A stretch of DNA of 51,818 nucleotides from Eubacteriales bacterium (GTDB lineage Bacteria > Bacillota > Clostridia > Oscillospirales > CAG-272). Shown piece by piece: positions 6,193 to 22,818 of the stretch (its first letter is position 1; each line of letters opens with the position of its first letter). The notes beneath the pieces are model-generated. The model was not told where the DNA came from, made no database searches, and saw only the letters and a program-made list of their open reading frames with translations. The translations under genes and the position numbers were made by a program. The stretch spans positions 1 through 51,818 of the forward strand of contig JAZNYH010000076.1 of the NCBI GenBank assembly GCA_045594305.1, read 5' to 3'.

Positions 6193-6295
6193 GATATCTC
6201 CTTTGATGCTTGAATATACTTTTATTAAAGTATATCACAAAAGCAACCACATTTCAAGAATAAGATTGCTCTTAAAACAAAAAAGAGACAGGCGT

Positions 6296-6445
6296 AAAGG
6301 CAGGCTCTCATAAGGATATTAAGTAAATCCAAGAGAAAATGCCGATTGAGAGTGGCTAAACAAGAAAAATGCAACATGGACGAAAAGTCTGTGTTGCATT
6401 TTTCGTTATGTGTCCGCACCTCAAAATTTGCGCCGCAATAAACAA
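6296..6445 (+). repeat. Conserved left end shared with 15636-15786, including hairpin AAAAATGCAACATGGAC-GAAAA-GTCTGTGTTGCATTTTT
   Basis: Near-identical ~150-bp sequence at both loci. Confidence 0.9.
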
Positions 6446-6649
6446 GGAAATCCATCACGGGCAAGAGTCTGTGATGGATTATCTCTTTCATACTCGACTC
6501 AAATATCAATTGTTTGGGAATTATTCACACGAAAATAGACTTTTTAACTACAAATCGATTAAAAATTCAAAAGAAAATAGCAAAATCTCTTGTAATTATT
6601 TATGCGATGATGTATAATGGTATAAAAGATTTATATTTCGAGGTGCAAC

Positions 6650-6859
6650 ATGGCTATTTGTTACAACAAACTATGGAAGCTTTTAATAGATCGAAAAATG
6701 AAAAAGAAGGATTTGCTTGAGCAAGCCGGAATCAGTCGCGGAACATTAACTAAGCTCAACAAAGATGAAAATGTTTCAACTGAAACCCTTGTTCGTATTT
6801 GCACTGCTTTAAAATGTGATATCAGCGATATTGTTGAAATCACTGATATTGAGAATTAA
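6650..6859 (+). CDS. Cro/C1-type (XRE) HTH transcriptional regulator
   Basis: YNKLWKLLID..MKK.DL...AGIS..TL.KL...ENVS...L.RIC.AL.CDI.DI signature; RBS GAGGTG. Confidence 0.9.
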   Translation: MAICYNKLWKLLIDRKMKKKDLLEQAGISRGTLTKLNKDENVSTETLVRICTALKCDISDIVEITDIEN

Positions 6860-6872
6860 GAGAGGTTTCCTC

Positions 6873-7811
6873 ATGACAGAAATAGAAAAGATTGCGTACG
6901 CAAAATCATTTATTGATAAATTAGCCATTGGTATTGATCCTACTGACGGCACACTTATCCCCGACGGCGAGGTTGCGCTTAACCCAAGACTATCAAAATG
7001 CTTTTTATATGTAGCGGATATCTTATCTAAAATCATTGAAAATCCGTCTGCCTTAACAGAAATGTATAAGACTAACGAGTGGATCGTCACGCCCGATGTT
7101 CTTGCAAGAATCGAATGCTCTGCATTAAGAGTGGGCATAAGCACTTTTGCAAAGCGAGTAAACGATGCGTTAAGATCAACTCGTAAATTTACCGCAACCG
7201 AGATAAACAATTGGCTTTTGCATGAAGGATATTTGACGAGAATTGCAACGAGCGATAATAAGATGACCAAACGCCCTACGCAAAAAGGAGTTAATCTCGG
7301 TATTACCACGGATGAGGTAATAAAGGACAACGGCCGAGCAAAATACTATGTTCGATGCAATGTGAACGCTCAACGCTTCATAAGAGATCATCTTTCGGAA
7401 ATTATTGAATTCTCTAAAACTTCCGTAGCATATTCGGATACATCAGTTAGACACAAGCCTTCCGAACCGTTTGAAATCACTCAGGCGGAGCTTGCAAAAT
7501 TTGAATTCTCTGAAACACCTTTGATGATAAGTCAGATTATTGACAGAATAAATGCGTTAAAGACAAACACGAGTGCAGCGAAATTAAAAGCAACGGATAT
7601 TACAGAGTGGTTGTTGAGCGTTGGAATTCTGAAAGTGGTTGCGCTTGATGCAAAGAACTATAAATTGCCGAGTGATATCGGTAGCGAAATGGGCATCAGC
7701 GTTGAACGCAGAAGCAGTAGCAACGGGGAGTATAGCATTGCTCTTTACAATATCGAAGCGCAAAAATTTATAATCGATAACTTGCACGCAATAGTAAGAA
7801 TCATTTTATAA
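6873..7811 (+). CDS. Hypothetical protein with two tandem winged-helix-like repeats
   Basis: RBS GAGAGG before ATG 6873; internal duplication (IS....R.N....AT.I..WLL..G.L...K.P...G...GI...AQ.FI.D.L). Confidence 0.75.
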   Translation: MTEIEKIAYAKSFIDKLAIGIDPTDGTLIPDGEVALNPRLSKCFLYVADILSKIIENPSALTEMYKTNEWIVTPDVLARIECSALRVGISTFAKRVNDALRSTRKFTATEINNWLLHEGYLTRIATSDNKMTKRPTQKGVNLGITTDEVIKDNGRAKYYVRCNVNAQRFIRDHLSEIIEFSKTSVAYSDTSVRHKPSEPFEITQAELAKFEFSETPLMISQIIDRINALKTNTSAAKLKATDITEWLLSVGILKVVALDAKNYKLPSDIGSEMGISVERRSSSNGEYSIALYNIEAQKFIIDNLHAIVRIIL

Positions 7812-7830
7812 GAACAATTCGGAGGCCGAT

Positions 7831-10800
7831 ATGGCAAAAAGCATAGTATTCTTCGACACGGAAATTAGTGTCCATGAAAACAAAATACTTGACATAGGTG
7901 CGGTTAGAGGTGACAAAACTGTTTTTCATTCTCCATCCGTGTCGGAGTTTTGCGCCTTCGTGGCAGGTGCGGAGTTTCTATGCGGTCACAATGTTGTTCA
8001 TCACGATATGAAGCATATCAAACCACACATAGGGGAGGCTCTTCATCAGAAAGTGATAGATACGCTCTATCTTTCTCCTCTGATGTTTCCCAAGCGTCCT
8101 TACCACAAACTGCTTAAGGATGATAAGCTTCAAGTCGAAGAATTAAATAATCCCGTCAACGACAGCCGCAAAGCATCCACCTTGTTTTACGACGAAGTAA
8201 ATGCATTTTGTCAGTTGTCAAAAAATCGCAAAATGATATATTGCGGTTTGCTTTATAGCCATCCGGAATTCCAAGGATTTTTTGACTATGTGGATTTCAA
8301 GCCTTATAAATATAATTTAGCGCAACTGATTAGTGATGAATTTTCAGGAAGGATATGTGCAAACGCAGATTTAGATGTTCTTATAAAGCACTATTCCGTA
8401 GAATTGGCGTATGCACTCGCTTTAGTAGGTTGTGATGATCATTATTCAACTACACCGCCTTGGCTTCTCTATAACTATCCCAAAATTGAGAATGTTATAA
8501 AATTTTTATGTAACACTCCATGTGAAGAGCATTGCGAATACTGTCGCAACGCTCTTGATATTCATGAGTGGCTGAAACCCTTCTTCGGTCATTCCGGTTT
8601 CCGTAAGTTTGCCGGTGATGAGATCTCGTTGCAAGAAGTTGCCGCGCAAGCAGCCGTTGATGGAAAATCGCTTCTTGCTGTGTTCCCAACAGGTGGTGGA
8701 AAGTCAATTACATTCCAATTGCCTGCACTTATGGCAGGGAGAGCAATGCATGGTCTTACGGTTGTAATTTCTCCTCTTCAGTCATTAATGAAAGACCAAG
8801 TTGACAACCTTGTAGAGAAAGGCATCGAGGGCGCAGTAACCATTAATGGAATGATGAATCCCATCGAACGCGCAGACGCCATTGAAAGAGTAAAGAATGG
8901 CAAAGCATCTCTGCTTTACATATCCCCTGAACAGCTTCGTTCAAAAACGATAGAGCGACTCTTGATGTCGCGCAATATTGTGCGTTTTGTTATCGATGAA
9001 GCGCATTGTTTCTCTGCTTGGGGGCAGGACTTCAGAGTAGATTATTTGTATATCGGAGATTTCATTCGCAAGCTTCAGAAGGATAAGAAAACCGAGCGTA
9101 AACCGATCCCCGTGTCCTGTTTTACTGCAACAGCAAAGCAAAAGGTTATCTCTGACATATGCGATTATTTCTATAAAAAGCTCGATTTGACATTGGAGAT
9201 CTTCGCTTCAAAAGCCACGAGAGAAAACCTTCACTACACCGTATTACACAAAGAAACGGATGAAGAAAAATACAGTGCATTGAGAACGTTGATCGCTCAA
9301 AAGCAATGCCCGACGATTGTTTATGTTTCACGAACAAAACGCACATTTGAGCTTGCCGCCAAACTGACGAGCGATGGTTTTAAAGCTCTTCCGTACAATG
9401 GAAAGATGGATGCCAACGACAAGATTATCAATCAAGAGGCATTCATGAACAATGATGTATCCATCATTGTAGCAACCTCAGCTTTTGGTATGGGTGTTGA
9501 CAAGAGAGATGTAAAGCTTGTTATACACTATGACATATCGGACTCTCTTGAAAATTATGTTCAGGAAGCAGGCAGAGCCGGACGAGATCAATCCTTGCAA
9601 GCTGAATGCTATGTTCTTTTTAACGATAACGATCTTGACAAGCATTTCATATTGCTGAACCAAACAAAATTAAGCATCAGCCAAATCCAGCAAGTATGGA
9701 AAGCTATCAAGGATCTCACGCAAAATCGCCCCAATATATGCTGTTCTGCTCTTGAAATTGCGCGTCAGGCGGGATGGGATGACTCTGCAGGTGCTGAAAT
9801 GGAAACCCGTGTCAGAACTGCCATCTCAGCACTTGAAACCGCAGGCTATATTGTGCGAGGCAGAAATGTGCCGAAGGTGTTTGCTACGAGCATAAGAGCA
9901 AAGGATATGACCGAAGCATCTTATCGTATTCGAAGCTCGTCCCTCTTTTCAGAAGAACAACGCACAGCAGCTCTGCGCATAATTAAATCCTTAATATCAA
10001 GCCGTAGTATTGCGACGGCTGGTAATGATGAAGCTGAATCACGCATAGATTATCTTGCCGACAATCTTGCACTGTCAAAAGAAGCCGTTATTGAGGCAAT
10101 CAATTTGATGCGTCAGGAAGGTCTGCTGGAAGATTACAGCGATATGTCCGCATACATTAACGATTCGGACAGTCACCATAAGTCGTCGCTAATTCTTGAA
10201 AGATTTGCAAAGCTTGAACGCTTTATTCTTTCAAAGATTGATGACGAAGGTGCTAATTTCGGATTTAAAGAATTAAATGAGTCTGCTCAAGCAGAAGGAA
10301 TTACCACATCAACAATAAAGAATATAAAAACCATCCTCTATTTTCTTTCTATCAAGAACTATATTCACAAAGAAGAAAATCGAGATAGTGTTTCCGTGGA
10401 TGTAGTTCCGGCATTGGGTCTTAAAAATCTGATGGACAAGTTTGAGAGGCGTATTGAACTGTGCAGATTCATACTTGCCGAGCTGTATGCAAAAGCCGAG
10501 CAGAAAGGAAAAGAAGCAGAGGGCGAGGATCTGAAGCCTGTTGTCTTTTCTCTGGTGGGGCTTTACAAGGAATATCAAAACGCGCCTAAAATGAACATAG
10601 GCGGAATTCCTGTGGAGTTAAGTGATGTCGAGGATGCTCTTCTGTATATGTCCAAGATTGGTGCGCTGAAGCTTGAAGGCGGATTTCTCGTCCTCTACAA
10701 TGCTATGGAAATCAAGCGTATCGTAAGAGATAACCGAATTAAATACAAGGTTGACGATTATAGATTGCTTGACGAATTCTATAAGCAGAAAATCCGTCAA

Positions 10801-12648
10801 ATCCACATCGTAGGTGAGTACGCAAATCTTATGGTGCGTGATTATGATGCTGCCTTACAGTTTGTTCAGGACTACTTCAATATGGAATTCAAGAAATTCA
10901 TAGCGAAGTATTTCAAGGGAGAGCGCGCAAAAGAGATTGAGCGAAATATCACGCCCGACAGATACAATCAACTGTTTGGTGATCTTTCCGATATACAAGA
11001 GGAAATCATCAACGATATATCCAAATATATAGTTGTGGCAGCCGGCCCCGGAAGCGGAAAAACAAGAGTTCTTGTTCACAAGCTCGCTTCGCTTTATCAG
11101 TTGGAGGACGTAAAACATGAGCAGATGCTTATGTTGACCTTCTCACGGGCGGCGGCTACCGAATTTAAAAAACGGTTACATACGCTTATTGGAAATGCGG
11201 CGAATTTCATCGAAATCAAAACATTCCACTCCTACTGCTTTGATTTACTCGGCAAGATCGGAACGCTTGAAGCATCGGAAAATATTGTAAGAGATGCTGC
11301 CGAAATGATTCGCAACGGAGAGGTTGAGCAAGGTAAAATTACCAAGACCGTTCTTGTTATTGATGAGGCACAAGATATGGACGAGCATGAATTCGCTCTC
11401 GTTCGTGCTTTGATGGCTCAAAATGACGATATGCGAATCATAGCCGTTGGCGATGACGATCAAAACATCTATGAGTTCCGTGGCTCTAATTCCGTTCATT
11501 TAAGAACGCTGATTGAACAGTACGGCGCAAACAAATACGAAATGGTCGAAAATTATCGTAGCAAAGCTAATGTGGTTGCATTGGCGAATGCGTTTGCGGA
11601 AACGATTACGAATCGTATGAAGGTTGCTCCCGTCGAGCCTGTTACCGAGGAAACAGGAGTTGTAAAAATCACACGCCACACTTCTGCTAATATGGAAGAA
11701 GCAGTCGTTCAAAATCTAATTGAAACATATACCGGCGGCAGAGCTTGTGTGCTTACGAACACCAATGATGAAGCACTTCGCATAATGGGATTGCTTTTGA
11801 AATACGGAAAATGCGCAAAGCTTATACAATCACTCGACGGCTTTAAATTAATCAATCTCGTAGAGGTGCGAGTATTTCTTAACGCCATTAAAAAAGATCT
11901 GCATTCGCCCGTTATCCCCGACGAGATATGGAATAAGGCGAAAAAGGAACTCTTTAGCAAGTACTATAATAGCTCTTGCGTTGATAATATTCGCAAGCTG
12001 GTGCTTGATTTTGAAGCCACTCATTCGGTAAAATACATTTCCGATTTGGAGGAATTCATAAGCGAATCAAACTATGAAGATTTTTATGTTGATAGCGAAG
12101 CAGAGGTAATCTATGTTTCGACTATACATAAATCTAAGGGGCGTGAATTTGATAGCGTATACATGATGCTTAAGGATGCTCACGGAAAGAATGATGAAGA
12201 ATGTAGAAAGCTATATGTCGGAATGACAAGATCTAAGAGCAATTTATTCATTCATACTAACACCGATCTGTTTGCAAAATATGTTCTCCCCGATGTAATT
12301 CATGTTGCTGACAGCAACGATTATAGTGAGCCGTCAGAAATCGTATTGCAAACAACGCACAGAGAAGTTGTTCTCGATTATTTCAAAAACAAAAAGGAAC
12401 TCATATTCGATTTAAGAAGCAGCACCTCATTAAAGATAGACGATGTTTATCTTAGCGCTGAACTTCATGGTCGAGATGTGCGTGTGGCGAAATTCTCAAA
12501 AGCTTTTGTAGAAACGCTTGAAAAACTTAAAACCAAAGGGTATGTGCCTACCTCTTCGGAAGTTCGTTTCATTGTAGCATGGAAAGGCGAGGAAGATGAT
12601 CAGGAAACCCCGATCCTTCTTACCGACATCCATTTTCAAAAACAATAA
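7831..12648 (+). CDS. Exonuclease-like + RecQ (SF2) + UvrD-like (SF1) helicase fusion protein
   Basis: N-terminal FFDTE/GHN/DTL DEDD-like motifs; PTGGGKS, DEAH, TATA, QEAGRAGRD (RecQ); AGPGSGKT, DEAQD, GDDDQ, TIHKSKGRE, YVGMTR (UvrD). Confidence 0.9.
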   Translation: MAKSIVFFDTEISVHENKILDIGAVRGDKTVFHSPSVSEFCAFVAGAEFLCGHNVVHHDMKHIKPHIGEALHQKVIDTLYLSPLMFPKRPYHKLLKDDKLQVEELNNPVNDSRKASTLFYDEVNAFCQLSKNRKMIYCGLLYSHPEFQGFFDYVDFKPYKYNLAQLISDEFSGRICANADLDVLIKHYSVELAYALALVGCDDHYSTTPPWLLYNYPKIENVIKFLCNTPCEEHCEYCRNALDIHEWLKPFFGHSGFRKFAGDEISLQEVAAQAAVDGKSLLAVFPTGGGKSITFQLPALMAGRAMHGLTVVISPLQSLMKDQVDNLVEKGIEGAVTINGMMNPIERADAIERVKNGKASLLYISPEQLRSKTIERLLMSRNIVRFVIDEAHCFSAWGQDFRVDYLYIGDFIRKLQKDKKTERKPIPVSCFTATAKQKVISDICDYFYKKLDLTLEIFASKATRENLHYTVLHKETDEEKYSALRTLIAQKQCPTIVYVSRTKRTFELAAKLTSDGFKALPYNGKMDANDKIINQEAFMNNDVSIIVATSAFGMGVDKRDVKLVIHYDISDSLENYVQEAGRAGRDQSLQAECYVLFNDNDLDKHFILLNQTKLSISQIQQVWKAIKDLTQNRPNICCSALEIARQAGWDDSAGAEMETRVRTAISALETAGYIVRGRNVPKVFATSIRAKDMTEASYRIRSSSLFSEEQRTAALRIIKSLISSRSIATAGNDEAESRIDYLADNLALSKEAVIEAINLMRQEGLLEDYSDMSAYINDSDSHHKSSLILERFAKLERFILSKIDDEGANFGFKELNESAQAEGITTSTIKNIKTILYFLSIKNYIHKEENRDSVSVDVVPALGLKNLMDKFERRIELCRFILAELYAKAEQKGKEAEGEDLKPVVFSLVGLYKEYQNAPKMNIGGIPVELSDVEDALLYMSKIGALKLEGGFLVLYNAMEIKRIVRDNRIKYKVDDYRLLDEFYKQKIRQIHIVGEYANLMVRDYDAALQFVQDYFNMEFKKFIAKYFKGERAKEIERNITPDRYNQLFGDLSDIQEEIINDISKYIVVAAGPGSGKTRVLVHKLASLYQLEDVKHEQMLMLTFSRAAATEFKKRLHTLIGNAANFIEIKTFHSYCFDLLGKIGTLEASENIVRDAAEMIRNGEVEQGKITKTVLVIDEAQDMDEHEFALVRALMAQNDDMRIIAVGDDDQNIYEFRGSNSVHLRTLIEQYGANKYEMVENYRSKANVVALANAFAETITNRMKVAPVEPVTEETGVVKITRHTSANMEEAVVQNLIETYTGGRACVLTNTNDEALRIMGLLLKYGKCAKLIQSLDGFKLINLVEVRVFLNAIKKDLHSPVIPDEIWNKAKKELFSKYYNSSCVDNIRKLVLDFEATHSVKYISDLEEFISESNYEDFYVDSEAEVIYVSTIHKSKGREFDSVYMMLKDAHGKNDEECRKLYVGMTRSKSNLFIHTNTDLFAKYVLPDVIHVADSNDYSEPSEIVLQTTHREVVLDYFKNKKELIFDLRSSTSLKIDDVYLSAELHGRDVRVAKFSKAFVETLEKLKTKGYVPTSSEVRFIVAWKGEEDDQETPILLTDIHFQKQ

Positions 12649-12940: not shown

Positions 12941-13989
12941 TGGCGCGCCACAGTTAACCTCAGTTGAACACCTAAGTAAAAATTCAGAAAAGCCTTATAG
13001 TATAAGCCTTTTTAGCGTTTTTTAAAATGCTAATTTTTTGGAATTTTGTATATATAACAGCTCAAAAAGACCATTAAAATACCTTTTTAAAGATATTGAC
13101 AATATGGTGAAAATAGTGATACAATTATAAATGAGCCGTTCAAAGCATCTTTTTACAAGATAGCTTAAAGCATTTTAACGCAGTGTTTTAAGCCATTTGG
13201 ATGGTGAAATTGAATCTCAAATTAAAAAGAAAAGAAAGAAAAAATCTAAAAATACAGTATTAAAATCTGCTGTTTCTAAACTTAATATGAAAATAAAATA
13301 CAAGGGAGTAAAGATAGATATTGTTCTTCCAATATCTCAACAACTAATAAGTTCAATAATCAATGTCTTATGTTAAGGAGGTTTTTATGGATTTAGCATT
13401 GTATGAAAATATCATAATGAAAAGGCTTGCTTATTTTGTTACAATAGGTATTCTTGTTATATGCTTGGCTGTATTTGCTATGATATATGTAATAAAAAAG
13501 ATGAGACAACAAGATAAGGCGCTTTTCTTTGCACTGATTATATTGTGTATAGCCTTGATAATTGGTAGTATAATATTAATTGGAAAAGTATTATTTGAGT
13601 CTATTTATGATGTTAGTAATCAAGCTTATGTAGTTTGGGATGGTGAATTCATAGTGGGAACCGATGTTGAAAATCGTTCTGGAACATGTAGCTTGTATTT
13701 GCCTGATGAAAATGGAATAAAACTTGAAACGGATGCTTATGAATTAAAGTCTGGTAAATATATTGGACAAGTAATATACGGAGAAAAAACCAAAATTGTT
13801 TTAGAAATTAAAACAGAAGACTGATGATAAGAAAAAATAAAGTTTTGTCAGCTTGACGAGTAAAATTGTCAAGCTGATTTTTGTATAACGAAAACCACGC
13901 GATAGTGAAGTGAACCCCATTTAGTGCACAAAAAATAAAAAAGACTCAGCATAACCACAGGGGTTCAACTGAGTCTCTCTTGGCGCGCC
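12941..13989. mobile_element. Single-gene cassette at the tRNA-Arg 3' end
   Basis: TGGCGCGCC (tRNA 3' end) duplicated at 12941 and 13981; inward inverted arms CTCAGTTGAAC (12959-12969) / GTTCAACTGAG (13963-13973); AT-rich interior. Confidence 0.65.
13387..13824 (+). CDS. Hypothetical membrane protein (two predicted TM helices)
   Basis: GGAGG RBS before ATG 13387; two hydrophobic segments followed by a soluble tail; terminator-like hairpin at ~13848-13880. Confidence 0.7.
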   Translation: MDLALYENIIMKRLAYFVTIGILVICLAVFAMIYVIKKMRQQDKALFFALIILCIALIIGSIILIGKVLFESIYDVSNQAYVVWDGEFIVGTDVENRSGTCSLYLPDENGIKLETDAYELKSGKYIGQVIYGEKTKIVLEIKTED

Positions 13990-14056
13990 CCGGGGGATTC
14001 GAACCCTCGACCTACCGGTTCGTAGCCGGGCACTCTATCCGCTGAGCTAGGAGCGC
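13981..14056 (-). tRNA. tRNA-Arg (ACG)
   Basis: Reverse complement GCGCTCCTAGCTCAGCGGATAGAGTGCCCGGCT-ACG-AACCGGTAGGTCGAGGGTTCGAATCCCCCGGGGCGCGCCA folds as a cloverleaf with CCA end. Confidence 0.95.
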
Positions 14057-14081
14057 ATACACTTTTTCTTTGTGCCTAAGT

Positions 14082-14110
14082 ATAATAACACAATATTTTT
14101 CAAAAGTCAA
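14082..14110 (-). promoter_or_regulatory. sigmaA-type promoter for tRNA-Arg
   Basis: TTGACT-17 nt-TATTAT with extended TG on the minus strand. Confidence 0.6.
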
Positions 14111-14209
14111 TAGGAAATTTGAAATTTCTTTTTTCTAAGATTATTTTGTCAAAAATCCAAGGACATATTGCAAAAGAACGGATTAAAATAACAAAAACGA
14201 AAAAAACTA

Positions 14210-14238
14210 TTGACAACGCCAAAGAAATTGTGTATAAT
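14210..14238 (+). promoter_or_regulatory. Consensus sigmaA promoter for tRNA-Ser
   Basis: TTGACA-17 nt-TATAAT with A-rich UP element. Confidence 0.85.
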
Positions 14239-14280
14239 TTAAAAGCAAACTCGGGAAACGGGAGTTTGCAAGTGCTTTAT

Positions 14281-14371
14281 GGAGAAGTACTCAAGTGGCC
14301 GAAGAGGCGCCCCTGCTAAGGGTGTAGGTCGGGTAACCGGCGCGGAAGTTCAAATCTTCTCTTCTCCGCCA
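14281..14371 (+). tRNA. tRNA-Ser (GCT)
   Basis: GGAGAAG acceptor stem, anticodon loop CT-GCT-AA, long variable arm, GTTCAAATC T-loop, CCA end. Confidence 0.95.
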
Positions 14372-14374
14372 AGC

Positions 14375-14405
14375 AAAAAAGACAGGTCTTGCACCTGTCT
14401 TTTTT
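14375..14405 (+). terminator. tRNA-Ser terminator (duplicated at 15416-15447)
   Basis: AAAAAAGACAGGT-CTTGC-ACCTGTCTTTTTT. Confidence 0.85.
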
Positions 14406-14610
14406 GTTTTTTGTGCGGTGAAGAATTTGAATTTCATCTGTGTCGGTTACCGCCGGCAAGGAAGGGACGGTTCCGAGCGCACCCAGTGGGTGATACAGCG
14501 AGGAATAAGGAGTGGCAGTCGTCCAAGAAAACGAGCAATCAACCGATTGCGATGCTTGATTGGCTAACGACAACAGTTCGACGGAACGAGGAGCGTTCCT
14601 AGATAATCTT

Positions 14611-15410
14611 CTCCGCCAAGTGAGACCAAAATCGAACTAATTCGGTTTTGGTCTTTTCTTATGCCTATTTTTAGGTTTTTGTGGCGTTCAAATTTCTAAT
14701 ATAAAGCATTTTAGCAGGGCTTTTTGCCCTGTTTTTTATTTGCTTAACCTTGATAATGTGATTTGATTTTCGCTTAAAAGTAGCTTTTATGCCGCGAAAG
14801 ACGATTGCCAAGGACTATTACTTTTTTATAATTAAAGCCCATTTTCTATTTCACCGATTTTTATATCAACCATTTTCTTCATAAATGATAAATCTGTTTC
14901 GCTTGGGTTATCAATCCTAAAGGTGCAACAACATACTCTTGAAAACCTTTTTCCAAAAATCTCTTTAGGTTTTCCACCACTACAACCACCACATAAGCCA
15001 CATTGGTCAACATATTTCCAAGCGGTTTCTTTCAAATTTTCTTCTATTGGGTAATTTGCAAGATAATCAGAACTTATATCATCTGACCAAACAGTCCAAT
15101 TCCTGTCAGGCTCTTCAGGGTCTTTAATTGCTATAAAGCATATACATTTTTCTTGATTATATCTAATCCAATAATAAATCTTGTCTTTCCAGCAAGCGCC
15201 TTCATCTTTGTAAAACTCCAAATTCTTTTCTCTCAAATATCTTACAAATTCTAAAGCGATTTTTTGGTCGTTTCCCAATAAATTTTCTTCTATGTATTCT
15301 TCAATTGTCTTAATCATTTTTGCCTCCAATTTTTGAGATATAAGTTATTATATCATTTCTTCGTCAAAAAGTAAAGAATTTTAGTTCGATTTTCATCTCA
15401 CTTGCTCCGC
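14611..15410. mobile_element. Single-gene cassette inserted in a copy of the tRNA-Ser 3' end
   Basis: 24-bp terminal inverted repeats with 2 mismatches (14617-14640 CAAGTGAGACCAAAATCGAACTAA / 15381-15404), flanked by direct CTCCGC. Confidence 0.8.
14832..15317 (-). CDS. Hypothetical protein with Cys cluster (CGLCGGC...VCCC)
   Basis: GGAGG RBS before ATG 15317; AT-rich ORF inside the cassette. Confidence 0.7.
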   Translation of the reverse strand: MIKTIEEYIEENLLGNDQKIALEFVRYLREKNLEFYKDEGACWKDKIYYWIRYNQEKCICFIAIKDPEEPDRNWTVWSDDISSDYLANYPIEENLKETAWKYVDQCGLCGGCSGGKPKEIFGKRFSRVCCCTFRIDNPSETDLSFMKKMVDIKIGEIENGL

Positions 15411-15885
15411 CAAGCAAAAAAGACAGGTCTTGCACCTGTCTTTTTTTGTATATCACGCTATTGGTAGTCATCTTACATTACAATTGAGGCGTGGTAAAAT
15501 AAGAATATCAAGCAAAAGGGGGACTATTATCTCTATATAGATGATAGCTTTTCCAAACAGAGCGAGTATTGTAAGCTATACATAGACCTAAAGCAAGCCG
15601 AGCTTGAATAAGTAATCGCAACAAAAAAGTCACCAAAAGGCAGGTTCTCATAAGGATATTGAGTTAAATCCAAGAGAAAATGCCGATTGAGAGTGGTTCA
15701 ACAAGAAAAATGCAACATGGACGAAAAGTCTGTGTTGCATTTTTCTTTATACTTCTGCTCCCCAAAATTTGCGCCGCAATAAACAAAGAATAAGTTTGGC
15801 GAAAAAGTTAGATTTATTTTCGAAAAAGTGCTGGACTTCCGCAACATTCTGTGGTATGTTGTTGTGCTAACAGGAGGTGCAACAC

Positions 15886-16152
15886 GTGGATAACCCAATA
15901 AAAGAACTATGGCACGGAAACATAATACCGCAAGAGGACAGCAGAAATAACTCAAAGGAGATGAAGGAGCTACTTGGATACATGGCACGGCATCACGAAG
16001 ATTTGGAGAAAACCTTCACAGACGAACAAAAGGAGATCTTCGAAAAGTTCCGTGACTGCTGGGATGAGTACGTAAGCCTCGCCGAAGCAGCTATCTTCGA
16101 GTATGCCTTCAAGTTAGGAATGCAGATAGCAATAGAAACATTAACCGAATAG
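15886..16152 (+). CDS. Small clostridial hypothetical protein (DUF6809-like)
   Basis: GGAGG RBS before GTG 15886; ELW.GNI.P...EQKEIFEKF.DCW.EY....E.AIF.YAFKLG pattern, recognised from memory. Confidence 0.65.
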   Translation: MDNPIKELWHGNIIPQEDSRNNSKEMKELLGYMARHHEDLEKTFTDEQKEIFEKFRDCWDEYVSLAEAAIFEYAFKLGMQIAIETLTE

Positions 16153-16328
16153 TAAATAGGGCTGAGCGCATGGATGTGTTCAGTCATCTATAATTGAGTT
16201 GCTATTGGAAATATTGATGGATTTTATGACTAAGATTCGATATTTTCAAACTAAATTACCACGAGTGAAAATTTACTATTAATGTTTTAAAATATTTTGA
16301 TATATAAACCACAAATTGTGCATAGCAC

Positions 16329-16357
16329 TTGACAATTTCGCCCAGACGAAGTATAAT
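16329..16357 (+). promoter_or_regulatory. Perfect-consensus sigmaA promoter for the HTH-ThiC-like-ADH-TIR operon
   Basis: TTGACA-17 nt-TATAAT ending 34 nt before the HTH start codon. Confidence 0.8.
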
Positions 16358-16391
16358 TATTACGTAGAATTATATCAAAAAAGAGGATTGT

Positions 16392-16595
16392 ATGGAATTT
16401 AACTATATTTCCACGAAAGATGCGGCTAAAATTCTTGGCATAACCGAAAGATACGTGCAAATGCTTTGCAAAGAAGGTAAAATTGAAGGTGCGATTAAAT
16501 TCAATGGACAAGGTGTTTGGTTGGTGCCGCACTTGTCTGTAAAAAAGATCAACAAAAAAAGAAGTTTTAAATACACCGAGGAGGAAGAGCGATGA
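16392..16595 (+). CDS. Excisionase/MerR-like HTH DNA-binding protein
   Basis: YISTKDAAKILGITERYVQMLCKEGKIEGA.K....WLVP; stop overlaps the next start (ATGA). Confidence 0.85.
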   Translation: MEFNYISTKDAAKILGITERYVQMLCKEGKIEGAIKFNGQGVWLVPHLSVKKINKKRSFKYTEEEER

Positions 16596-17770
16596 ATACT
16601 GTAAAAGAAGAATATTATGGTGTTTTTTCTAATGCAGAAATTGAGCAAAAAGTAGCAAACGGAGAAATTTTGCGTTTTAAAGCTAAACGGCCAATACTTA
16701 TTGGGACTCAATGCATGCTTAAAGTTAATATGAATGTTGGGGTTTCGAATGAGGATTTCTATGATGTCGAAGTGGATAAAATTGCAAAAATTTCATCCTT
16801 GCCGTATCGTCCTGATTCAATGATGGACCACACAATAGTTCCCTTGAAAAAGCCTTTGTGGAAAACGATGCTAGAGGTATTTGATGGTGCCGTTGGAACA
16901 TTACCACATTACCTTGTTTTTGACGAAAACAAGGGAATTGATGAAAATGACCTTTTTGATAACTTGTTAGACATGGTAAAAGGTGGAGTGAGTTTTATGA
17001 CATTACACCCAACTGCGGATATAAGTATTTACCATAGGGCGGTAGCCTCGCACAGAATAGTTCCTACCACTTCACGAGGTGGATATGTTTTGTTAAAAGA
17101 TCAAGCTATTAATAGAAGATGCGAAAATATAATCGCAAAGAATTTCGAAAAAATAATGGATATTTTTCGCGAGAACAATGTTGCGGTAAGTATCGGAACG
17201 GTTTTTAGACCTGCCACAATACACGAAGCTTTGGATGAATTTCACAGAGAAGAAACTGTTTTGCAAAAAAAATACATAGACATAGCCAAAGCGCGTGGTG
17301 TCCAGGTCATGATGGAAGGAATCGGACACATTTCACTAGACAAAATGGAAGAATACTCCGAAATAATTCGTCCTTACAATGTTCCGTTAATGCCACTTGG
17401 TCCAATGCCCTCCGATGAGATAATTGGATTCGATCACATTTCAAATGCTTTAGGAGCCTTATCTATGGCACAAACCGGCGTCGTTGGTATGATCAATTCG
17501 GTAACAAGGGAGGAACATACGGGAAAAGTTCCCTCGTTTGATTCCATTCTCGAAGGCCTTAAGACCGCTAGAGCAACCGCACATTGTTATAATATTAGTA
17601 AATTCCCAAAGTACAAAGAAGCGACGGAAGTGATAGGTATTACTCGTGCACAACATGAAACCTGCGTGCAGCGAGGAGGAATTTTTGGATTCACATCGGT
17701 TGATGATAAGGAGTCAGAATCTTGCACTAGATGTCGTAGAGAGTGTCCATTAAAAAAAATAATTGTATGA
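16592..17770 (+). CDS. Divergent ThiC/BzaAB-family radical-SAM enzyme
   Basis: KVNMNVG, MD, GTLPHY, FMTLH, SRGG, VQVMMEG.GH, LGP..SD...GFDHI, VT.EEH and C-terminal CTRCRREC align with ThiC motifs. Confidence 0.85.
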   Translation: MNTVKEEYYGVFSNAEIEQKVANGEILRFKAKRPILIGTQCMLKVNMNVGVSNEDFYDVEVDKIAKISSLPYRPDSMMDHTIVPLKKPLWKTMLEVFDGAVGTLPHYLVFDENKGIDENDLFDNLLDMVKGGVSFMTLHPTADISIYHRAVASHRIVPTTSRGGYVLLKDQAINRRCENIIAKNFEKIMDIFRENNVAVSIGTVFRPATIHEALDEFHREETVLQKKYIDIAKARGVQVMMEGIGHISLDKMEEYSEIIRPYNVPLMPLGPMPSDEIIGFDHISNALGALSMAQTGVVGMINSVTREEHTGKVPSFDSILEGLKTARATAHCYNISKFPKYKEATEVIGITRAQHETCVQRGGIFGFTSVDDKESESCTRCRRECPLKKIIV

Positions 17771-17838
17771 TAACAATAGGTTAGATGTTATAAAAGGTTA
17801 ACAGCACCAATTTAAAATCAATTTATAGGAGATATATT

Positions 17839-18987
17839 ATGAATCTTAGTTATTGCAACACCACGAAAGTTTTTTTTACCAATGAAATTAAAGATATTTA
17901 TGATTTTGTTTGTTCGTCTGGATTTAACAAGGTTTTATTCGTTACAGGTGGACAATCTACTAAAAAAATTGCTCTTCAAATCAAAGATGGCTTTAATACT
18001 TCTAATATTCAGTGCATTGTTTTGGATGGAATTACCACTAATCCGTTGTCGGAGACGATAGAAGAAATGGCTAAAGTAGCAAAGAGTTTTTCTCCCGATG
18101 TGATATTAACTGTCGGTGGAGGAAGCGTTCACGATGCGGGGAAGGCTATTTCAATAATGGTGTTTTCTGAGAACAACAATGTTGAAGACTATACTGTGAA
18201 CGGAAAATTAAGCGTTCCTGGAATAGTCAAAACAATTCCCGTTATTACTATTCCTACTGTTTGGGGATCGGGGGCAGAAGTATCCCCGGCAGCACTTGTT
18301 CGAATTGGTAAAGAAAAAAGAGTTATATTTTCACCAATGTTGCATCCTGTCGCAACATTTATTAACACTAACTTTGCAGATAGTCTCACTAATTATCAAA
18401 TTTCGAGATCGTCTTTTGATTCATTTGTGCAAGCATTAGAAGGATTTATTTCAACATCGTCGAACAACATTTCTAATTCTTTTGCAAAGATTGCAATTGA
18501 TAATTATAATACATGTCTACCTTCGCTGTTCCATAACCAGATAACCAATGATGTTTTGGAAAAATTGGCAATATCGTCTGTTTTCTCATCATATGTTTGC
18601 TCTACTGCTAGCGTAGGAGCAATTCATGCAATATCTGATCCAATTAGCGGTAGATACGATACACATCACGCTGTTGCATTAGCGATGATTGCTGTAGATG
18701 TGTTGAAGAAAAATCTATCAGTAGTTGATGAGGGTAAGATTCAAGAATTGGATAAGATGCTGTACAATATCCCCAGTTTCTTTAATGATGTTACGGAACG
18801 AGTTTTGGATAAAGTAAAATATATTATTGCTCAACTTGATCTAGTTAATAAAGAGAAAACATTTATTGAGAAGCAAGATTTAGATGCTATGGCAGATGAA
18901 TCATATAACGGAGACATGGTGGGCAATCCGTACGAATTTGAGAAATTTGAAATAGTTGAGATTTTAAGGAAGCATTGTAATGATTAA
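17839..18987 (+). CDS. Iron-containing (group III) alcohol dehydrogenase family protein
   Basis: NP, GGGSVHDAGK, IPTVWGSGAEVS, DSFVQALE, HAI..., HH metal-site motifs. Confidence 0.9.
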   Translation: MNLSYCNTTKVFFTNEIKDIYDFVCSSGFNKVLFVTGGQSTKKIALQIKDGFNTSNIQCIVLDGITTNPLSETIEEMAKVAKSFSPDVILTVGGGSVHDAGKAISIMVFSENNNVEDYTVNGKLSVPGIVKTIPVITIPTVWGSGAEVSPAALVRIGKEKRVIFSPMLHPVATFINTNFADSLTNYQISRSSFDSFVQALEGFISTSSNNISNSFAKIAIDNYNTCLPSLFHNQITNDVLEKLAISSVFSSYVCSTASVGAIHAISDPISGRYDTHHAVALAMIAVDVLKKNLSVVDEGKIQELDKMLYNIPSFFNDVTERVLDKVKYIIAQLDLVNKEKTFIEKQDLDAMADESYNGDMVGNPYEFEKFEIVEILRKHCND

Positions 18988-20821
18988 TGTTGCTAATTTT
19001 GAAAGACGATCACGGTTTCTTGTTAAAGCGATAGCTGACAAGGTAAAATACGATAATGAGTCTTCGCCAAAATATGCATATTGGGCACTGTATTTAGATG
19101 ATAATAGAAAAAAGCCTCGTGAAGTTGATACTTGTGCAACTAGTTATTGTATATCAATATTAGAGACAGAAAAACAACGTTTAATGTCTGGTGGCGGTGT
19201 AGATAAATACATTTACCATGATATAATTCAGCAGGCCGTTCGCACATTGATACGCCTTCGTGGGAAAAATGGGGCTTGGCCTTCTGTTGTAGAGCCTAAG
19301 ATTCTCCAATCTCCTCCTGTATCTGAGTATTGTGGTGAAGTGGCAATTGGAGATAATTATTTCGCTTTAACAGCACTTCTTGATGTTGGATTTTTAAGTA
19401 AACAATTTGAGTATATAAGTAATATTCCTGAGGAATTACAAGAGTTAGAAGGTCGTGTGGAATATGTGTGTCAAACAGTTGATTGGTTAATTCTCAATCG
19501 TGTTGCTCCTGAAAATTATGGTTGGTATTATACAAATGCGGCGAACGAGTCCTCGACACAACCTGTAACTATAGCAACTGCTAATGTTCTTTCCGTGCTT
19601 AATAGAGTAAAAAATGCTATTAAGGGATATGAAAAATTCTTAAATTTTTACAAAAGAATTGAAAAAACAATTAATGAGACCAATGAGTATTTTGCTATTA
19701 ATATAAAGGCCGACGGTGGAATTGGTAAGTTTATCTCTTCAAGCACAACATCATCTTCATTATTGCATACTTGTAAAATGATAGATGCATTAATTTTAAG
19801 TGAAAATTATGAGTATTTGGACGAGCTTGAGCATGCAATAAAGTTTGTTGTCGACACTTGCAATCGTTTTCCTGATTGCAATCTTGCTACTCTTGGTGTT
19901 GATTTTTATAGCGAAACATACAATCTGGTATTGCCATCTGAAGATGAGATTACAATTCGGCATGAGAACTATTCGGAAGGATTACTGCTTTATACAATGC
20001 TCAATATTTTACACTTATATAGTCAAAGTGGTAGTTATATTTCAAAGGTGAAAATCGATCCAGTTGCAATCACTGATATCGTAAACTTGGTGATTAAACA
20101 ATTGGAAAACATGCAAACTAAAGAAGGCACCAACAATGGTCTGTTTAGATGTCATGTAGTTAGATCAGAAGGTATGCATCCAGTTTATGCAAGTTTTGAA
20201 GGCTATCGTGCATTCCGCATGTATATGTCTTTAGATAAGCATATTTTGACAGAAAACGATAAACTTAATTTGCAAGAAGAGATTAAGAAGAGTAACCCTT
20301 TCGATCCTGATGCTCCATATCTTTTCATAAGCTATTCTCACAAGAATGATGATGTTGTTTTGTTGGATGTTCAACGATTAAAAAAGCAATATAACTGTTG
20401 GATTGACTTTGAAAATTTGGACGGAGGTCGTTCAGCAACAGAAGATGACTGGACAGAAAAAGTTCAACCTGTTTTGGATAATCCGAATTGCAAGGGTGTA
20501 ATAATGTACATTAGCAAAGAAGGTATGAATTCTAACGGGCTTATGAGAGAAGCGGAATGGATATCTAAACGAAAATTGGACTTCTACACATTTTGGGTTG
20601 GGTTTAGTAATACGATAACGCCAAAGGAAATGGCAACTATAATATATGAAATCCCCGATGATGACACTCAACGCAAATTGAGAAAAATCTTGGCATTTTC
20701 ATATATTGGACAAACGAGCAAAGATCCTACAGAATTCTCGTATTATCACCGACAGGATACTTTTTCACATTTGTCCCATCCTGATTTTCACAATTGGTTA
20801 AAGAAAATCAATTTAGTATAA
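18980..20821 (+). CDS. Prenyltransferase/terpene-cyclase-like alpha/alpha barrel fused to a C-terminal TIR domain
   Basis: N-terminal QW-like repeats (LRGKNGAWP, PENYGWY, IKADGGIG, MQTKEG..NGLF); C-terminal YLFISYSHKN, CWID, W...V..., S..LMREAE TIR_2 pattern with the putative catalytic Glu. Confidence 0.75.
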   Translation: MINVANFERRSRFLVKAIADKVKYDNESSPKYAYWALYLDDNRKKPREVDTCATSYCISILETEKQRLMSGGGVDKYIYHDIIQQAVRTLIRLRGKNGAWPSVVEPKILQSPPVSEYCGEVAIGDNYFALTALLDVGFLSKQFEYISNIPEELQELEGRVEYVCQTVDWLILNRVAPENYGWYYTNAANESSTQPVTIATANVLSVLNRVKNAIKGYEKFLNFYKRIEKTINETNEYFAINIKADGGIGKFISSSTTSSSLLHTCKMIDALILSENYEYLDELEHAIKFVVDTCNRFPDCNLATLGVDFYSETYNLVLPSEDEITIRHENYSEGLLLYTMLNILHLYSQSGSYISKVKIDPVAITDIVNLVIKQLENMQTKEGTNNGLFRCHVVRSEGMHPVYASFEGYRAFRMYMSLDKHILTENDKLNLQEEIKKSNPFDPDAPYLFISYSHKNDDVVLLDVQRLKKQYNCWIDFENLDGGRSATEDDWTEKVQPVLDNPNCKGVIMYISKEGMNSNGLMREAEWISKRKLDFYTFWVGFSNTITPKEMATIIYEIPDDDTQRKLRKILAFSYIGQTSKDPTEFSYYHRQDTFSHLSHPDFHNWLKKINLV

Positions 20822-20957
20822 TTTATCATTTCAAAGTGCTTAAATAAATCTATAAATGCCCTTTAGATGCATTATACATAAAGTTTTTCTTAATTTGAAA
20901 AGAGCGAGATTGCACTTTATTTTTGCAATCTCGCTTTAAGTATTTATATTGAGGTGA

Positions 20958-21604
20958 ATGATGAAAAAAGAACTTGTTGGACAAGCGATATCATTTATTA
21001 AGGAATTGTTTGAAAATGAGTGTAGTGGACATGACTACTTTCATGCATTTCGAGTATTTAAAATGGCAACACATATTGCAAGCAAAGAATATGCTAATTT
21101 GGAAATTGTACAACTTGCGGCATTGTTGCACGATGTTGATGATAGAAAACTATCTCCCGAGACTTATGCGGAACAGAGCAACGCAAAGGCTTTTTTGCAA
21201 CAAACGGCGTGGATAATTCAATGATTGACACCATATGTCAAATTATCTGTAAAACATCATATATGGGAAAGGATTCTGTTATCCCTGAGACGATTGAGGG
21301 AAAATGTGTGCAAGATGCTGACAGGTTAGATGCTATCGGAGCAATTGGTATTGCAAGAACTTTTGCATATGGTGGAAAGCACAATAGGTTAATACATAAT
21401 CCGGATATTAAGCCTAATATGGATATGGGGGCAGAAGAATATGTTAACAGTCAATCAACAAGCATTAATCATTTTTACGAAAAACTATTCCAATTGACCG
21501 AGTTAATGAATACGCCCTCGGCAAAAGAGATTGCAAAAAGCAGAGAAAACTATATGAAAGAATATATTGCAGAATTTATGGCAGAATGGGAAGGAATTCG
21601 TTAA
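20958..21604 (+). pseudogene. HD-domain phosphohydrolase (YedJ/YpgQ-like), split by a 1-nt frameshift
   Basis: GHDYFH..RV and LAALLHD in the first frame; VQDADRLDAIGAIGIARTF and HFYEKL in the second; break near 21198-21205. Confidence 0.8.
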
Positions 21605-21900
21605 TTTTTAATAGATTATACAAAATAGTAACTCAAATCTATTAAAAAGGCACAAGTTTATGTTTCGATTTTATGATAAAACTGAAGCAACTATATCAGC
21701 CATCAATGTTTGCATTACGATAATCAAAGAAAAAACTATCTATGAAATTGCTGATAACAAAAATAGCACAGAAGGTTTACTCTCAAAATGAAGGACAGAC
21801 CTCTTCCCACAAAATCCGTGAAGTGAAATAACGGTGTTTTAGACCGATTGTGCCAAAAGAAATATTATTTCCAAAAACGAAAAAAATATTCAAAAAGCTA

Positions 21901-21929
21901 TTGACAAAGTAAAAATCCTATGTTAGAAT
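21901..21929 (+). promoter_or_regulatory. sigmaA promoter with extended -10, ahead of a structured leader
   Basis: TTGACA-17 nt-TAGAAT, TG at -15/-14. Confidence 0.7.
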
Positions 21930-22174
21930 AAAGCCCCTCACGAAGATGCGAGCTTCAAAATTGAATATATGTATCAAGTGCCAAATTAACTCTTCGGAGT
22001 AAACACAAAAGATCGCTCGACGATCCTCAAAACTGATCTGAGTCAAAAGACTCGTACTTACATATCGGCACGGAGCATTATAGTTTTAGCGAACGAGTGC
22101 CGTTCGCTTATTGGTGTTTCCGTAAAAATCTGTGTGTAAATACGAGTCTTTTTGTTTTGTCATCAGGAGGTAAA

Positions 22175-22709
22175 AATGAAACACAAAAATTTCTTTATTG
22201 TTCCCAATCAAATATTCAAGGTAACCTACTACGCACGCGCACAAACCCGTGAGTTCGTCAGCTTTATAAATCAAAAAAGCTCTGCGGAAAACCGCAGAGA
22301 GCTGAATGCAAAGATGGTAGAGCTTGCGAGTCTTGAAAAGCGCAACAACGAGCTGAACGCTCTGTTCAGGCGACTCTATGAGGAGAATGTTCTCGGCAAG
22401 GTTACGAACGAACAGTTCCGTATGCTCTCCGACGGTTATAATACCGAGCAAAGAGAAATCACCGAGCAACTTCCGATAGTGAAGCAAGAGATTGAAGATT
22501 TGAAAGCGGCCGCTACTAATGTCGAAAGATTTGTGGATATTGCAAACAAGTACACAGATTTAAGGGAGCTGACTCCCGAAGTGCTTCGCACATTCATAGA
22601 GCGAATTATTATCCACGAAAGAACAGCAAAGCATAGCAAAACCGCAATGCAGCAGATCGACATCTACTTCCGCTATATCGGAAAACTCGCCCCCGAAGCA
22701 GTCGCCTAA
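22175..22709 (+). pseudogene. Truncated large serine recombinase C-terminus (DUF4368/TnpX-like tail) behind a short unrelated N-terminus
   Basis: RLYEENVLGKV..E.F..LS..Y..EQ, F.....KYTDL.ELTPE.LR.FIERI.IHE, QQIDIYFRYIG; no resolvase catalytic domain; GGAGG RBS. Confidence 0.8.
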
Positions 22710-22818
22710 CCTCACAAAGCGAAATAGGACGGACAGTCGAAACTGTCCGTCCTACAATCGATACCGCCTATACGCAGTTAATATCCTTATGAGAAACTGC
22801 GTAAAGGTGGCTTTTTCT

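Follow-up and report, generated by a model that had tools for sequence, protein, structure and literature searches.

A rare mobile three-gene unit of a ThiC-like radical SAM enzyme, an alcohol dehydrogenase and a toroid protein: a candidate small-molecule module

ThiC and the Bza enzymes rearrange aminoimidazole ribotide (AIR) into heterocycles. To our knowledge, the ThiC superfamily comprises just two known activities, the synthesis of hydroxymethylpyrimidine phosphate (HMP-P) and of 5-hydroxybenzimidazole, both of which start from AIR. Other enzymes that use radical S-adenosylmethionine (SAM) chemistry, the viperins, defend by making modified nucleotides, and bacterial TIR domains are NAD+-processing enzymes central to Thoeris and other immune systems. 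A locus in an Eubacteriales bacterium of the CAG-272 lineage encodes, in one operon, a ThiC-like enzyme, an iron-type alcohol dehydrogenase (ADH) and a 613-residue protein in which a toroid domain is fused to a TIR-like domain. The operon lies on contig JAZNYH010000076.1 of assembly GCA_045594305.1, a stretch of 51,818 nucleotides that was analysed whole and is called the window below. An initial annotation of this DNA had proposed a chemical-defence or signalling module that also included a helix-turn-helix (HTH) gene and an HD hydrolase gene. Comparison across loci instead leaves the ThiC-like, ADH and toroid genes as the conserved unit. The best reading of this unit is a new mobile small-molecule module, one that is probably defensive.

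The unit was followed from both of its ends. A metagenome scan with an alignment of the relatives of the 613-residue protein returned 11 loci (L002-L012), whose gene content was read by tblastn, and all 11 carry the ThiC-like, ADH and toroid genes on one strand and in that order. The three genes are whole in L002, L003, L005, L006, L007, L009, L010 and L011. The incomplete loci are L004, which keeps a 53-residue ThiC-like remnant, L008, which is cut by the fetched range, and L012, which sits on a fragmented, low-coverage contig; L007-L011 are near-copies of one element. The reverse test, a genome scan with the ThiC-like alignment, gave eight loci of one subgroup (clade A, seven of them readable) and nine of another (clade B). 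ADH and toroid genes follow the clade-A gene in four of the seven readable loci (L021, L022, L023 and L025). The contig of L024 ends within the ADH gene, and L035 is too short to judge. In L020 (7929-10736) the partners of the clade-A gene are a cupin-like open reading frame (ORF) of 105 residues and a 423-residue toroid of the SQHop_cyclase type (74 bits), while L019 (7435-9161) has neither ADH nor toroid and encodes a translationally coupled 179-residue protein with a hydrophobic N-terminus, with an integrase nearby. The genes of the module overlap or abut across the loci. The three-gene cluster singled out by the initial annotation is therefore conserved elsewhere.

Clade-B genes, as seen in L026-L033 and L005, keep a companion of their own. 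A protein of about 420 residues, encoded with a 4-nt overlap, precedes the ThiC-like gene in seven of the nine loci, and the other two contigs begin at the gene. This partner has no Pfam or PADLOC match and no profile match to the toroid; its AlphaFold2 model reaches a predicted local distance difference test (pLDDT) score of 68.8 and a best VIA Z of 6.2, and the Atlas returns only hypothetical proteins for it, with DUF6236 in 12-16% of members. Both sets are combined in L005, which encodes a 428-residue protein, a clade-B ThiC-like enzyme, an ADH and a toroid-metallophosphoesterase fusion. Roseburia sp. 1XD42-69 and Dorea sp. 5-2 have the same clade-B protein without a single difference, suggesting that it was transferred recently.

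Other genes do not travel with the unit. An HTH homologue upstream of the ThiC-like gene, or any HTH-like small ORF there, is absent from all 22 loci compared, and the lone tblastn match of the HTH query lies downstream of the ThiC-like gene in L034. The HD gene is matched in none of 28 other loci by tblastn. Both had been counted as parts of the system, the HD enzyme as a possible eraser; they were rejected as core parts because they are absent from the unit in other loci and the HD gene is frameshifted. The 67-residue HTH protein is specific to this locus and is probably a regulator or belongs to the mobile element. A conserved transporter, regulator, immunity gene or further tailoring gene was likewise not found alongside the unit in the loci compared.

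The ThiC-like protein aligns with positions 25-416 of the 420-position PF01964 profile and scores 198 bits, whereas the canonical ThiC of relatives scores about 650 bits. It falls short of the ThiC equivalog models NF009895 (192.4 bits, cut-off 410), TIGR00190 (170, cut-off 460) and NF006763 (136.5, cut-off 650), and of the BzaB model TIGR04386 (132, cut-off 700). A maximum-likelihood tree was built from 45 rows, 23 of the new clade and 22 of ThiC, BzaA, BzaB and BzaF-like proteins, with groups labelled by gene context; it omits partial sequences (L004, L008, L012, L034, L035), the near-copy L009 of L007, and the broken or short L047 and L048. Between the new clade and the ThiC and BzaA/B/F rows lies a branch about 3 substitutions per site long, with 100/100 support; within the new clade, clade A (99/98) and clade B (97/96) are each recovered. 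By these sequence comparisons, the protein belongs to a third deep clade of the ThiC superfamily, apart from ThiC and from BzaA/B/F.

Contact residues of AtThiC, as named by Fenwick et al. (2015; PMC4389238), with Asp383 and Tyr449 touching the aminoimidazole ring of AIR, were transferred through a 3EPM alignment and the 45-row alignment. Among the contacts so named, those to the phosphate (Y107, H139, S161/R162/G163 and R206) and to the ribose (N48, or Ser, and E242) are kept in the new clade, as are the Cys motif C378/C381/C385, the His pair of the second metal (H246/H309) and the SAM-ribose Glu (E308). Apart from S161, replaced by Ala in two of 14 clade-A sequences, all are present in 23 of 23 rows. 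The two ring contacts given there are different: the Asp383 site is Thr or Ser in 23/23 new-clade rows (T203 here) and Asp in 22/22 ThiC and Bza rows, and the Tyr449 site is Met in 23/23 (M267 here) and Tyr or Phe in 22/22. In addition, the Leu259 site is His in 13 of 14 clade-A rows. The spacing of the Cys motif was dropped as a distinguishing trait, as CX2CX3C also occurs in short-type ThiC and in Bza.

The protein thus shares with ThiC and BzaA/B/F the PF01964 domain, the C-terminal CX2CX3C (that of short-type ThiC and Bza), the metal His pair, the SAM-ribose Glu and the phosphate and ribose contacts, while differing from them in clade, equivalog scores, AIR-ring contacts and genomic partners. 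This pattern leads us to infer that the enzyme is a radical SAM ribotide rearrangase whose base pocket differs from theirs. Retention of the ribotide and SAM sites around a rebuilt base pocket points to a new substrate and a new product. The view of the initial annotation that this is not an ordinary thiC or bza gene is borne out by the scores, the tree and the AIR contacts alike.

The second protein of the unit is an iron-type ADH that clears both of its Pfam cut-offs (Table 1). Its best NCBIfam match is ErcA, at 139 bits against a cut-off of 550, and it reaches no NCBIfam equivalog cut-off. Relatives in the PDB include 1,3-propanediol dehydrogenase and FucO (E about 1e-22), and the GGGS nucleotide motif lies at residues 93-96.

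The 613-residue protein was modelled by AlphaFold2 with a pLDDT of 86.4 and a predicted TM-score (pTM) of 0.78. Residues 1 to about 424 form an (alpha/alpha)6 toroid and residues from about 445 to 613 an alternating beta-alpha domain, so the 'barrel' described earlier is indeed there. Fold comparisons by Foldseek and VIA reach Z 23-27 overall, with AGE-type epimerases at Z 26-27 and GH76 and other proteins also matched; squalene-hopene cyclases (single-domain and classical) and drimenyl diphosphate synthase follow at Z of about 24-25 and 13-17% identity. The 50 fold matches listed include neither LanC nor beta subunits of prenyltransferases, which excludes nothing. The nearest Atlas clusters are SQHop_cyclase, Prenyltrans and TED (0.92, 176 shared features). 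Class II terpene cyclase and prenyltransferase toroids therefore share the fold of the protein and supply its nearest Atlas clusters, but Pfam scores are below their cut-offs and AGE epimerases match the fold equally well or better. The window protein itself has no SQHop_cyclase or Prenyltrans match in Pfam; distant members of the family show sub-threshold matches to SQHop_cyclase_C (23.7 bits, cut-off 26.1) and Prenyltrans (21.6, cut-off 26.5). Sequence comparison of the toroid profile with solved structures yielded nothing meaningful.

In 20 toroid sequences, down to 19% identity, the residues D50, C52, R159, W182, T185, T264, H328, E329 and Y403 are invariant, and in the AlphaFold2 model they fall at the starts of predicted helices. 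Toroid enzymes usually have their active sites at helix starts. The invariant residues of the model may accordingly line an active-site pocket. The Asp-x-Cys plus His pattern is loosely reminiscent of zinc sites in the beta subunits of prenyltransferases, and VDTCATS of the acid motif in triterpene cyclases.

The C-terminal domain of the protein varies among its relatives. Of 20 alignment members, 6 match TIR_2 at E<=0.01, the lowest value being 1.9e-7, the relative P0029 bears a TIR name at its source, and two TIR-containing PADLOC models, SAVED_TIR and Aga_TIR, match the 613-residue protein at E 3e-4 and 9e-4. Invariant TIR positions include Glu524, in MREAEW and present in 6/6 sequences, and Trp527; Glu524 is the putative catalytic Glu of the TIR motif. 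In P0029, P0032 and P0034 the same TIR module is joined to N-terminal domains that are unrelated. A search of 1.84 billion representatives with the toroid profile found 265 proteins at E<=1e-3, 62 of them at E<=1e-30. TIR fusions account for three representative clusters (P0004, P0015 and P0023). Elsewhere the toroid carries a metallophosphoesterase (P0017, from L005) or a C-terminal SIR2_2 domain (P0075, 758 residues, 74.7 bits), and a weaker group has an unknown N-terminal extension of 230-310 residues before the toroid. The TIR is an optional part of the toroid protein, swapped for metallophosphoesterase or SIR2 in relatives. A putative TIR domain thus lies at the present locus, as had been claimed, though it is not part of the core; since most relatives lack a TIR, the proposed TIR-dependent sensing or base exchange is not the general mechanism.

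Thoeris is the nearest described system on the TIR side. The bacterial TIR domain of Thoeris has a putative counterpart at the present locus, in which a Glu is likewise conserved, and true Thoeris genes adjoin two module loci. The differences are that the 613-residue protein matches no ThsB model in PADLOC, and an hhalign comparison with the ThsB of L002 gives a probability of 0.4; that the operon has no separate ThsA-type signal-sensing effector, the best ThsA1 match of the same genome (34.6 bits) lying on another contig; and that the TIR is dispensable across the toroid family. A word search of the main text of a 2025 preprint surveying TIR systems (10.64898/2025.12.03.692087) found none of the words radical, dehydrogenase, prenyl, squalene, thiamin and toroid, and its supplementary tables could hold the cluster. 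The genome of the present locus contains six ORFs with TIR_2 matches, on contigs C49, C34, C26, C105, C54 and C76. Four of these are above the Pfam cut-off, in proteins of 409-1012 residues, which seems many for 1.85 Mb.

The unit is rare, patchy and horizontally mobile. A search of 5.8 billion protein clusters yields 34 relatives of the 613-residue protein. None of 60 genomes of relatives encodes the toroid, and a first genome scan with toroid patterns also returned none. Any PF01964 match occurs in 2 of 36 genomes of other species in the genus. Serine recombinases, an integrase or transposases adjoin L010, L019, L020, L025 and L026.

Several loci lie beside defence genes recognised by PADLOC. 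In L002 a full-length ThsB1 (2e-62) stands 800 bp upstream of the module, L009 neighbours a GmrSD/HEC-06 enzyme, L022 an Old nuclease (2e-103) and L027 the specificity and methylase genes of a type I restriction-modification (RM) system. Beside the clade-B module of L031, at 5292-7220 (-), a 642-residue ThsA-ThsB fusion is encoded (ThsA1 1e-135, ThsB1 TIR 4e-21), and the window itself has a PADLOC-confirmed helicase of 1605 residues, DpdF/PsyrT-like and GajB-like. Further neighbours are a leucine-rich repeat (LRR)-Roc-COR protein (L005), a Tox-GHH nuclease (L010) and a 1642-residue AAA_16 protein (L023). The association of the module with defence genes is suggestive. Of the overall interpretation in the initial annotation, a conserved, rare and mobile unit often beside defence genes stands, and HD, HTH and TIR as core parts do not. 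Convergent to the module of L003 lies an 837-residue protein (9876-12389, -) with a Pfam match to eukaryote-type RNA-dependent RNA polymerase (39.4 bits) and no PADLOC match.

At the present locus, 16329-20937 (+) forms a single compact block resembling a transcription unit, with a promoter, four genes and a hairpin (Table 1). The promoter is the sole 12/12 match within 15400-22800. The HTH and ThiC-like reading frames overlap by 4 nt, and those of the ADH and the 613-residue protein by 8 nt. A simple scan for terminators does not list the hairpin, because its loop is 9 nt; as stable a fold arose in 0 of 200 shuffles, and it is the probable terminator of the operon. GC content is 0.356 in the operon, against 0.424 in the left flank and 0.450 in the right. 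The AT-richness, perfect promoter and overlapping frames reported at the outset are all confirmed.

Table 1. Positions of the operon features within the window
Feature	Position	Strand	Evidence
Sigma-70-type promoter, TTGACA-17 nt-TATAAT	16329..16357	+	12/12 consensus positions; consensus match only
HTH protein, 67 aa (HTH_17 / excisionase-like)	16392..16595	+	PF12728 30.5 bits; TIGR01764 25.6 bits, under its cut-off
ThiC-superfamily radical SAM enzyme, 392 aa	16592..17770	+	PF01964 198 bits
Group III iron-type alcohol dehydrogenase (Fe-ADH), 382 aa	17839..18987	+	PF00465 110.2 bits (cut-off 31.3); PF25137 71.6 bits (cut-off 27)
Toroid-TIR protein, 613 aa	18980..20821	+	ORF; toroid residues 1-424 = 18980..20251; TIR = 20312..20821
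Hairpin, 14 bp, loop 9 nt, 3' of the last gene of the operon	20901..20937	+	RNA fold -20.6 kcal/mol, z -5.97

The setting agrees with the mobile cassette described in the initial annotation. The low-GC stretch spans 13-22.7 kb, with tRNA-Arg and tRNA-Ser at its start and a DUF4368 piece at its end. In the region 13981-15446, which holds tRNA-Arg (-) and tRNA-Ser (+, 14281-14371), a 42-nt exact repeat made of the last bases of tRNA-Ser and a terminator-like stretch (14364-14405) recurs at 15405-15446, and 14 nt are repeated again at 14607-14620. These repeats look like nested integration scars. The piece at 22152-22709 encodes 185 residues and carries only DUF4368, presumably the C-terminal part of a serine recombinase; tblastn of two serine recombinases against the window gave no match.

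The HD gene, YedJ-like, lies beyond the hairpin and outside the operon. A frameshift divides it into two pieces, 20958-21224 and 21209-21604 (+), each of which matches the PRK10119 phosphohydrolase model, and it is either a pseudogene or an assembly error. By eye, the frameshift is near a T run at about 21193-21224. To the left of the tRNAs, at 6816-12648 (+), a 331-residue ORF with no Pfam or PADLOC match is followed by the 1605-residue helicase, in which a DEAD/Helicase_C module (DpdF/PsyrT-like, 316 bits) is joined to a GajB-like UvrD module; the two genes may be a separate defence gene pair. Further left (3955-6192, -) a 745-residue protein combines BspA-type leucine-rich repeats with a collagen triple-helix repeat.

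The evidence is best accommodated by a self-contained mobile module of three enzymes that would make or transform a ribotide-derived small molecule, most likely in conflict with phages or other mobile elements; we put the probability of this reading at roughly one half. The three enzymes are strictly co-inherited with no conserved transporter, regulator or immunity gene, which indicates an intracellular pathway. The interchange of TIR, SIR2 and phosphoesterase, the patchy spread of a mobile unit and the neighbouring RM, Thoeris, Old and GmrSD genes together have the look typical of conflict systems. Gene set, gene order and conservation, clade split, residue pattern, fold, domain swaps and neighbourhoods are observations; the catalytic steps, substrate, product and defensive role that follow are drawn from them. 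In the ThiC-like enzyme, the C-terminal [4Fe-4S] cluster and a second metal site would act on SAM to give a 5'-deoxyadenosyl radical, and this radical would rearrange a substrate that bears ribose 5-phosphate and a base or aglycone other than aminoimidazole. The iron-type dehydrogenase could then use NAD(P) to oxidise or reduce the product at a hydroxyl or carbonyl group. The toroid, with its invariant pocket of Asp-x-Cys, His-Glu, Arg, Trp and Tyr, may perform a further step or hold the product. At the present locus the fused TIR, through Glu524, would add NAD+ consumption, whether it acts as an effector or supplies or accepts ADP-ribose; in other versions of the module a SIR2, a metallophosphoesterase or a mere helical tail takes the position of the TIR.

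Prokaryotic viperins offer an analogy, the idea in both cases being chemical defence by a radical SAM enzyme that is encoded on a mobile or defence locus and modifies a substrate resembling a nucleotide. Their radical SAM architecture is unrelated to the non-canonical ThiC type found here, and the present module has two further obligatory enzymes and an antiviral product that would be hypothetical. A published description of the ThiC-like, ADH and toroid gene set was not found in a search of full-text literature, supplementary files being outside that search.

Ordinary vitamin metabolism would be the simplest alternative, with the ThiC-like enzyme serving thiamine (HMP-P) or cobamide lower-ligand (5-hydroxybenzimidazole) synthesis and a TIR gene adjacent by chance. 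The near-full-length PF01964 match and the intact SAM, metal, cluster and phosphate residues are what such an enzyme would have. Scores far under all ThiC and BzaB equivalog cut-offs, a position outside both clades and the replacement, in 23/23 members, of both AIR-ring contacts named in the structural paper nevertheless make it highly improbable. The genome adds to this: in 1.85 Mb, 95% complete, there is no second PF01964 gene and no ThiE above cut-off (best match 19 bits against 27), and the sole thiamine pyrophosphate (TPP) riboswitch is on a different contig, C79. In the window, as stated at the outset, a tRNA is the only Rfam match at gathering threshold, and neither a TPP nor a cobalamin riboswitch is found. 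The PF01964 search and the Pfam scans of 20 window ORFs turned up no cob or bza gene, these having had no dedicated search, and the ThiC-like gene is linked to ADH and toroid genes rather than to thi or cob genes. The thiamine or B12 reading was therefore rejected on equivalog scores, clade placement, AIR contacts, the missing ThiE and the TPP riboswitch elsewhere.

Two other explanations deserve more attention, and some of the facts that weigh against a defensive module bear on them. The unit might serve specialised metabolism, producing a heterocyclic metabolite, cofactor or antimetabolite; TIR, SIR2 and phosphoesterase would then be pathway enzymes, for example in NAD+-dependent ribosyl or ADP-ribosyl transfer to a new base and later trimming, to which cobamide lower-ligand activation would be an analogy. 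Each of the three core proteins is an enzyme whose catalytic residues are conserved, metabolic genes are neighbours at several loci, and TIR and SIR2 both use NAD+, so that their swap would also fit a common substrate in place of a common role in killing. Most toroid relatives, moreover, are proteins of 470-520 residues composed of the toroid and a helical tail of about 80 residues, without a recognisable effector domain, a majority that fits a plain biosynthetic pathway equally well. This explanation is possible, if doubtful, given the extreme patchiness of the unit, its place on mobile elements near RM, Thoeris, Old and GmrSD genes, the lack of a conserved transporter, immunity or further tailoring gene, and the presence of one TIR module on unrelated N-terminal domains, as is usual for conflict domains. 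Alternatively, the ThiC-like enzyme and the ADH could make an infection messenger, with the toroid as a receptor that triggers the fused TIR, SIR2 or phosphoesterase so that growth stops. The several partner sets of the ThiC-like clade do recall one synthase with many effectors, and an invariant pocket joined to a variable C-terminus would suit a receptor. The effector-less majority and the constant presence of the ADH beside the toroid, suggesting a pathway over a receptor, make this arrangement rather unlikely.

Against the defensive module we favour stand further observations. The TIR_2 (PF13676) match of the window protein, at 23.4 bits and E 9e-5, is below the Pfam cut-off of 28, and neither the TIR segment nor the TIR profile matched any solved TIR when compared with solved structures by sequence. 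Scores of the toroid are tied across epimerases, glycosidases and terpene cyclases, which makes the fold generic. The toroid was not found in viral contigs or in plasmid and phage collections, nor was the ThiC-like clade in plasmid and phage collections, whose phage records hold only canonical thiC. Defence neighbours are confirmed in just 5 of 28 fetched loci, where the scanned neighbours were chosen by hand, and housekeeping genes flank the module in L021, L023 and L024. No RNA run is listed as containing the stretch, the listed runs being DNA runs with small shares of it. In PADLOC-DB 2.0 the TIR part alone is matched; the ThiC-like, ADH and toroid proteins find no model there and so receive no independent defence call, which also agrees with the statement in the initial annotation that no described system combines these families.

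A wider interpretation is suggested by analogy, and is offered tentatively. The ThiC-like clade may represent a previously unknown class of immune small-molecule synthases that convert a non-AIR ribotide into an antiviral or signalling compound and work with interchangeable partner modules. These partners would possibly be ADH and toroid (with TIR, SIR2 or phosphoesterase), cupin and toroid, the 420-residue protein, and the small membrane-type protein. Such a clade would resemble CD-NTases and Thoeris TIRs, which pair with many effectors.

A third clade of the ThiC superfamily that has kept its radical machinery and rebuilt its base pocket predicts new radical rearrangement chemistry. The link to a dehydrogenase and a toroid, together with TIR, SIR2 and phosphoesterase fusions on mobile elements near defence genes, makes a new chemical or NAD+-linked form of immunity testable with a construct of about 4.6 kb. 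Should it prove purely metabolic, the module would still represent a pathway new for anaerobes of gut and rumen.

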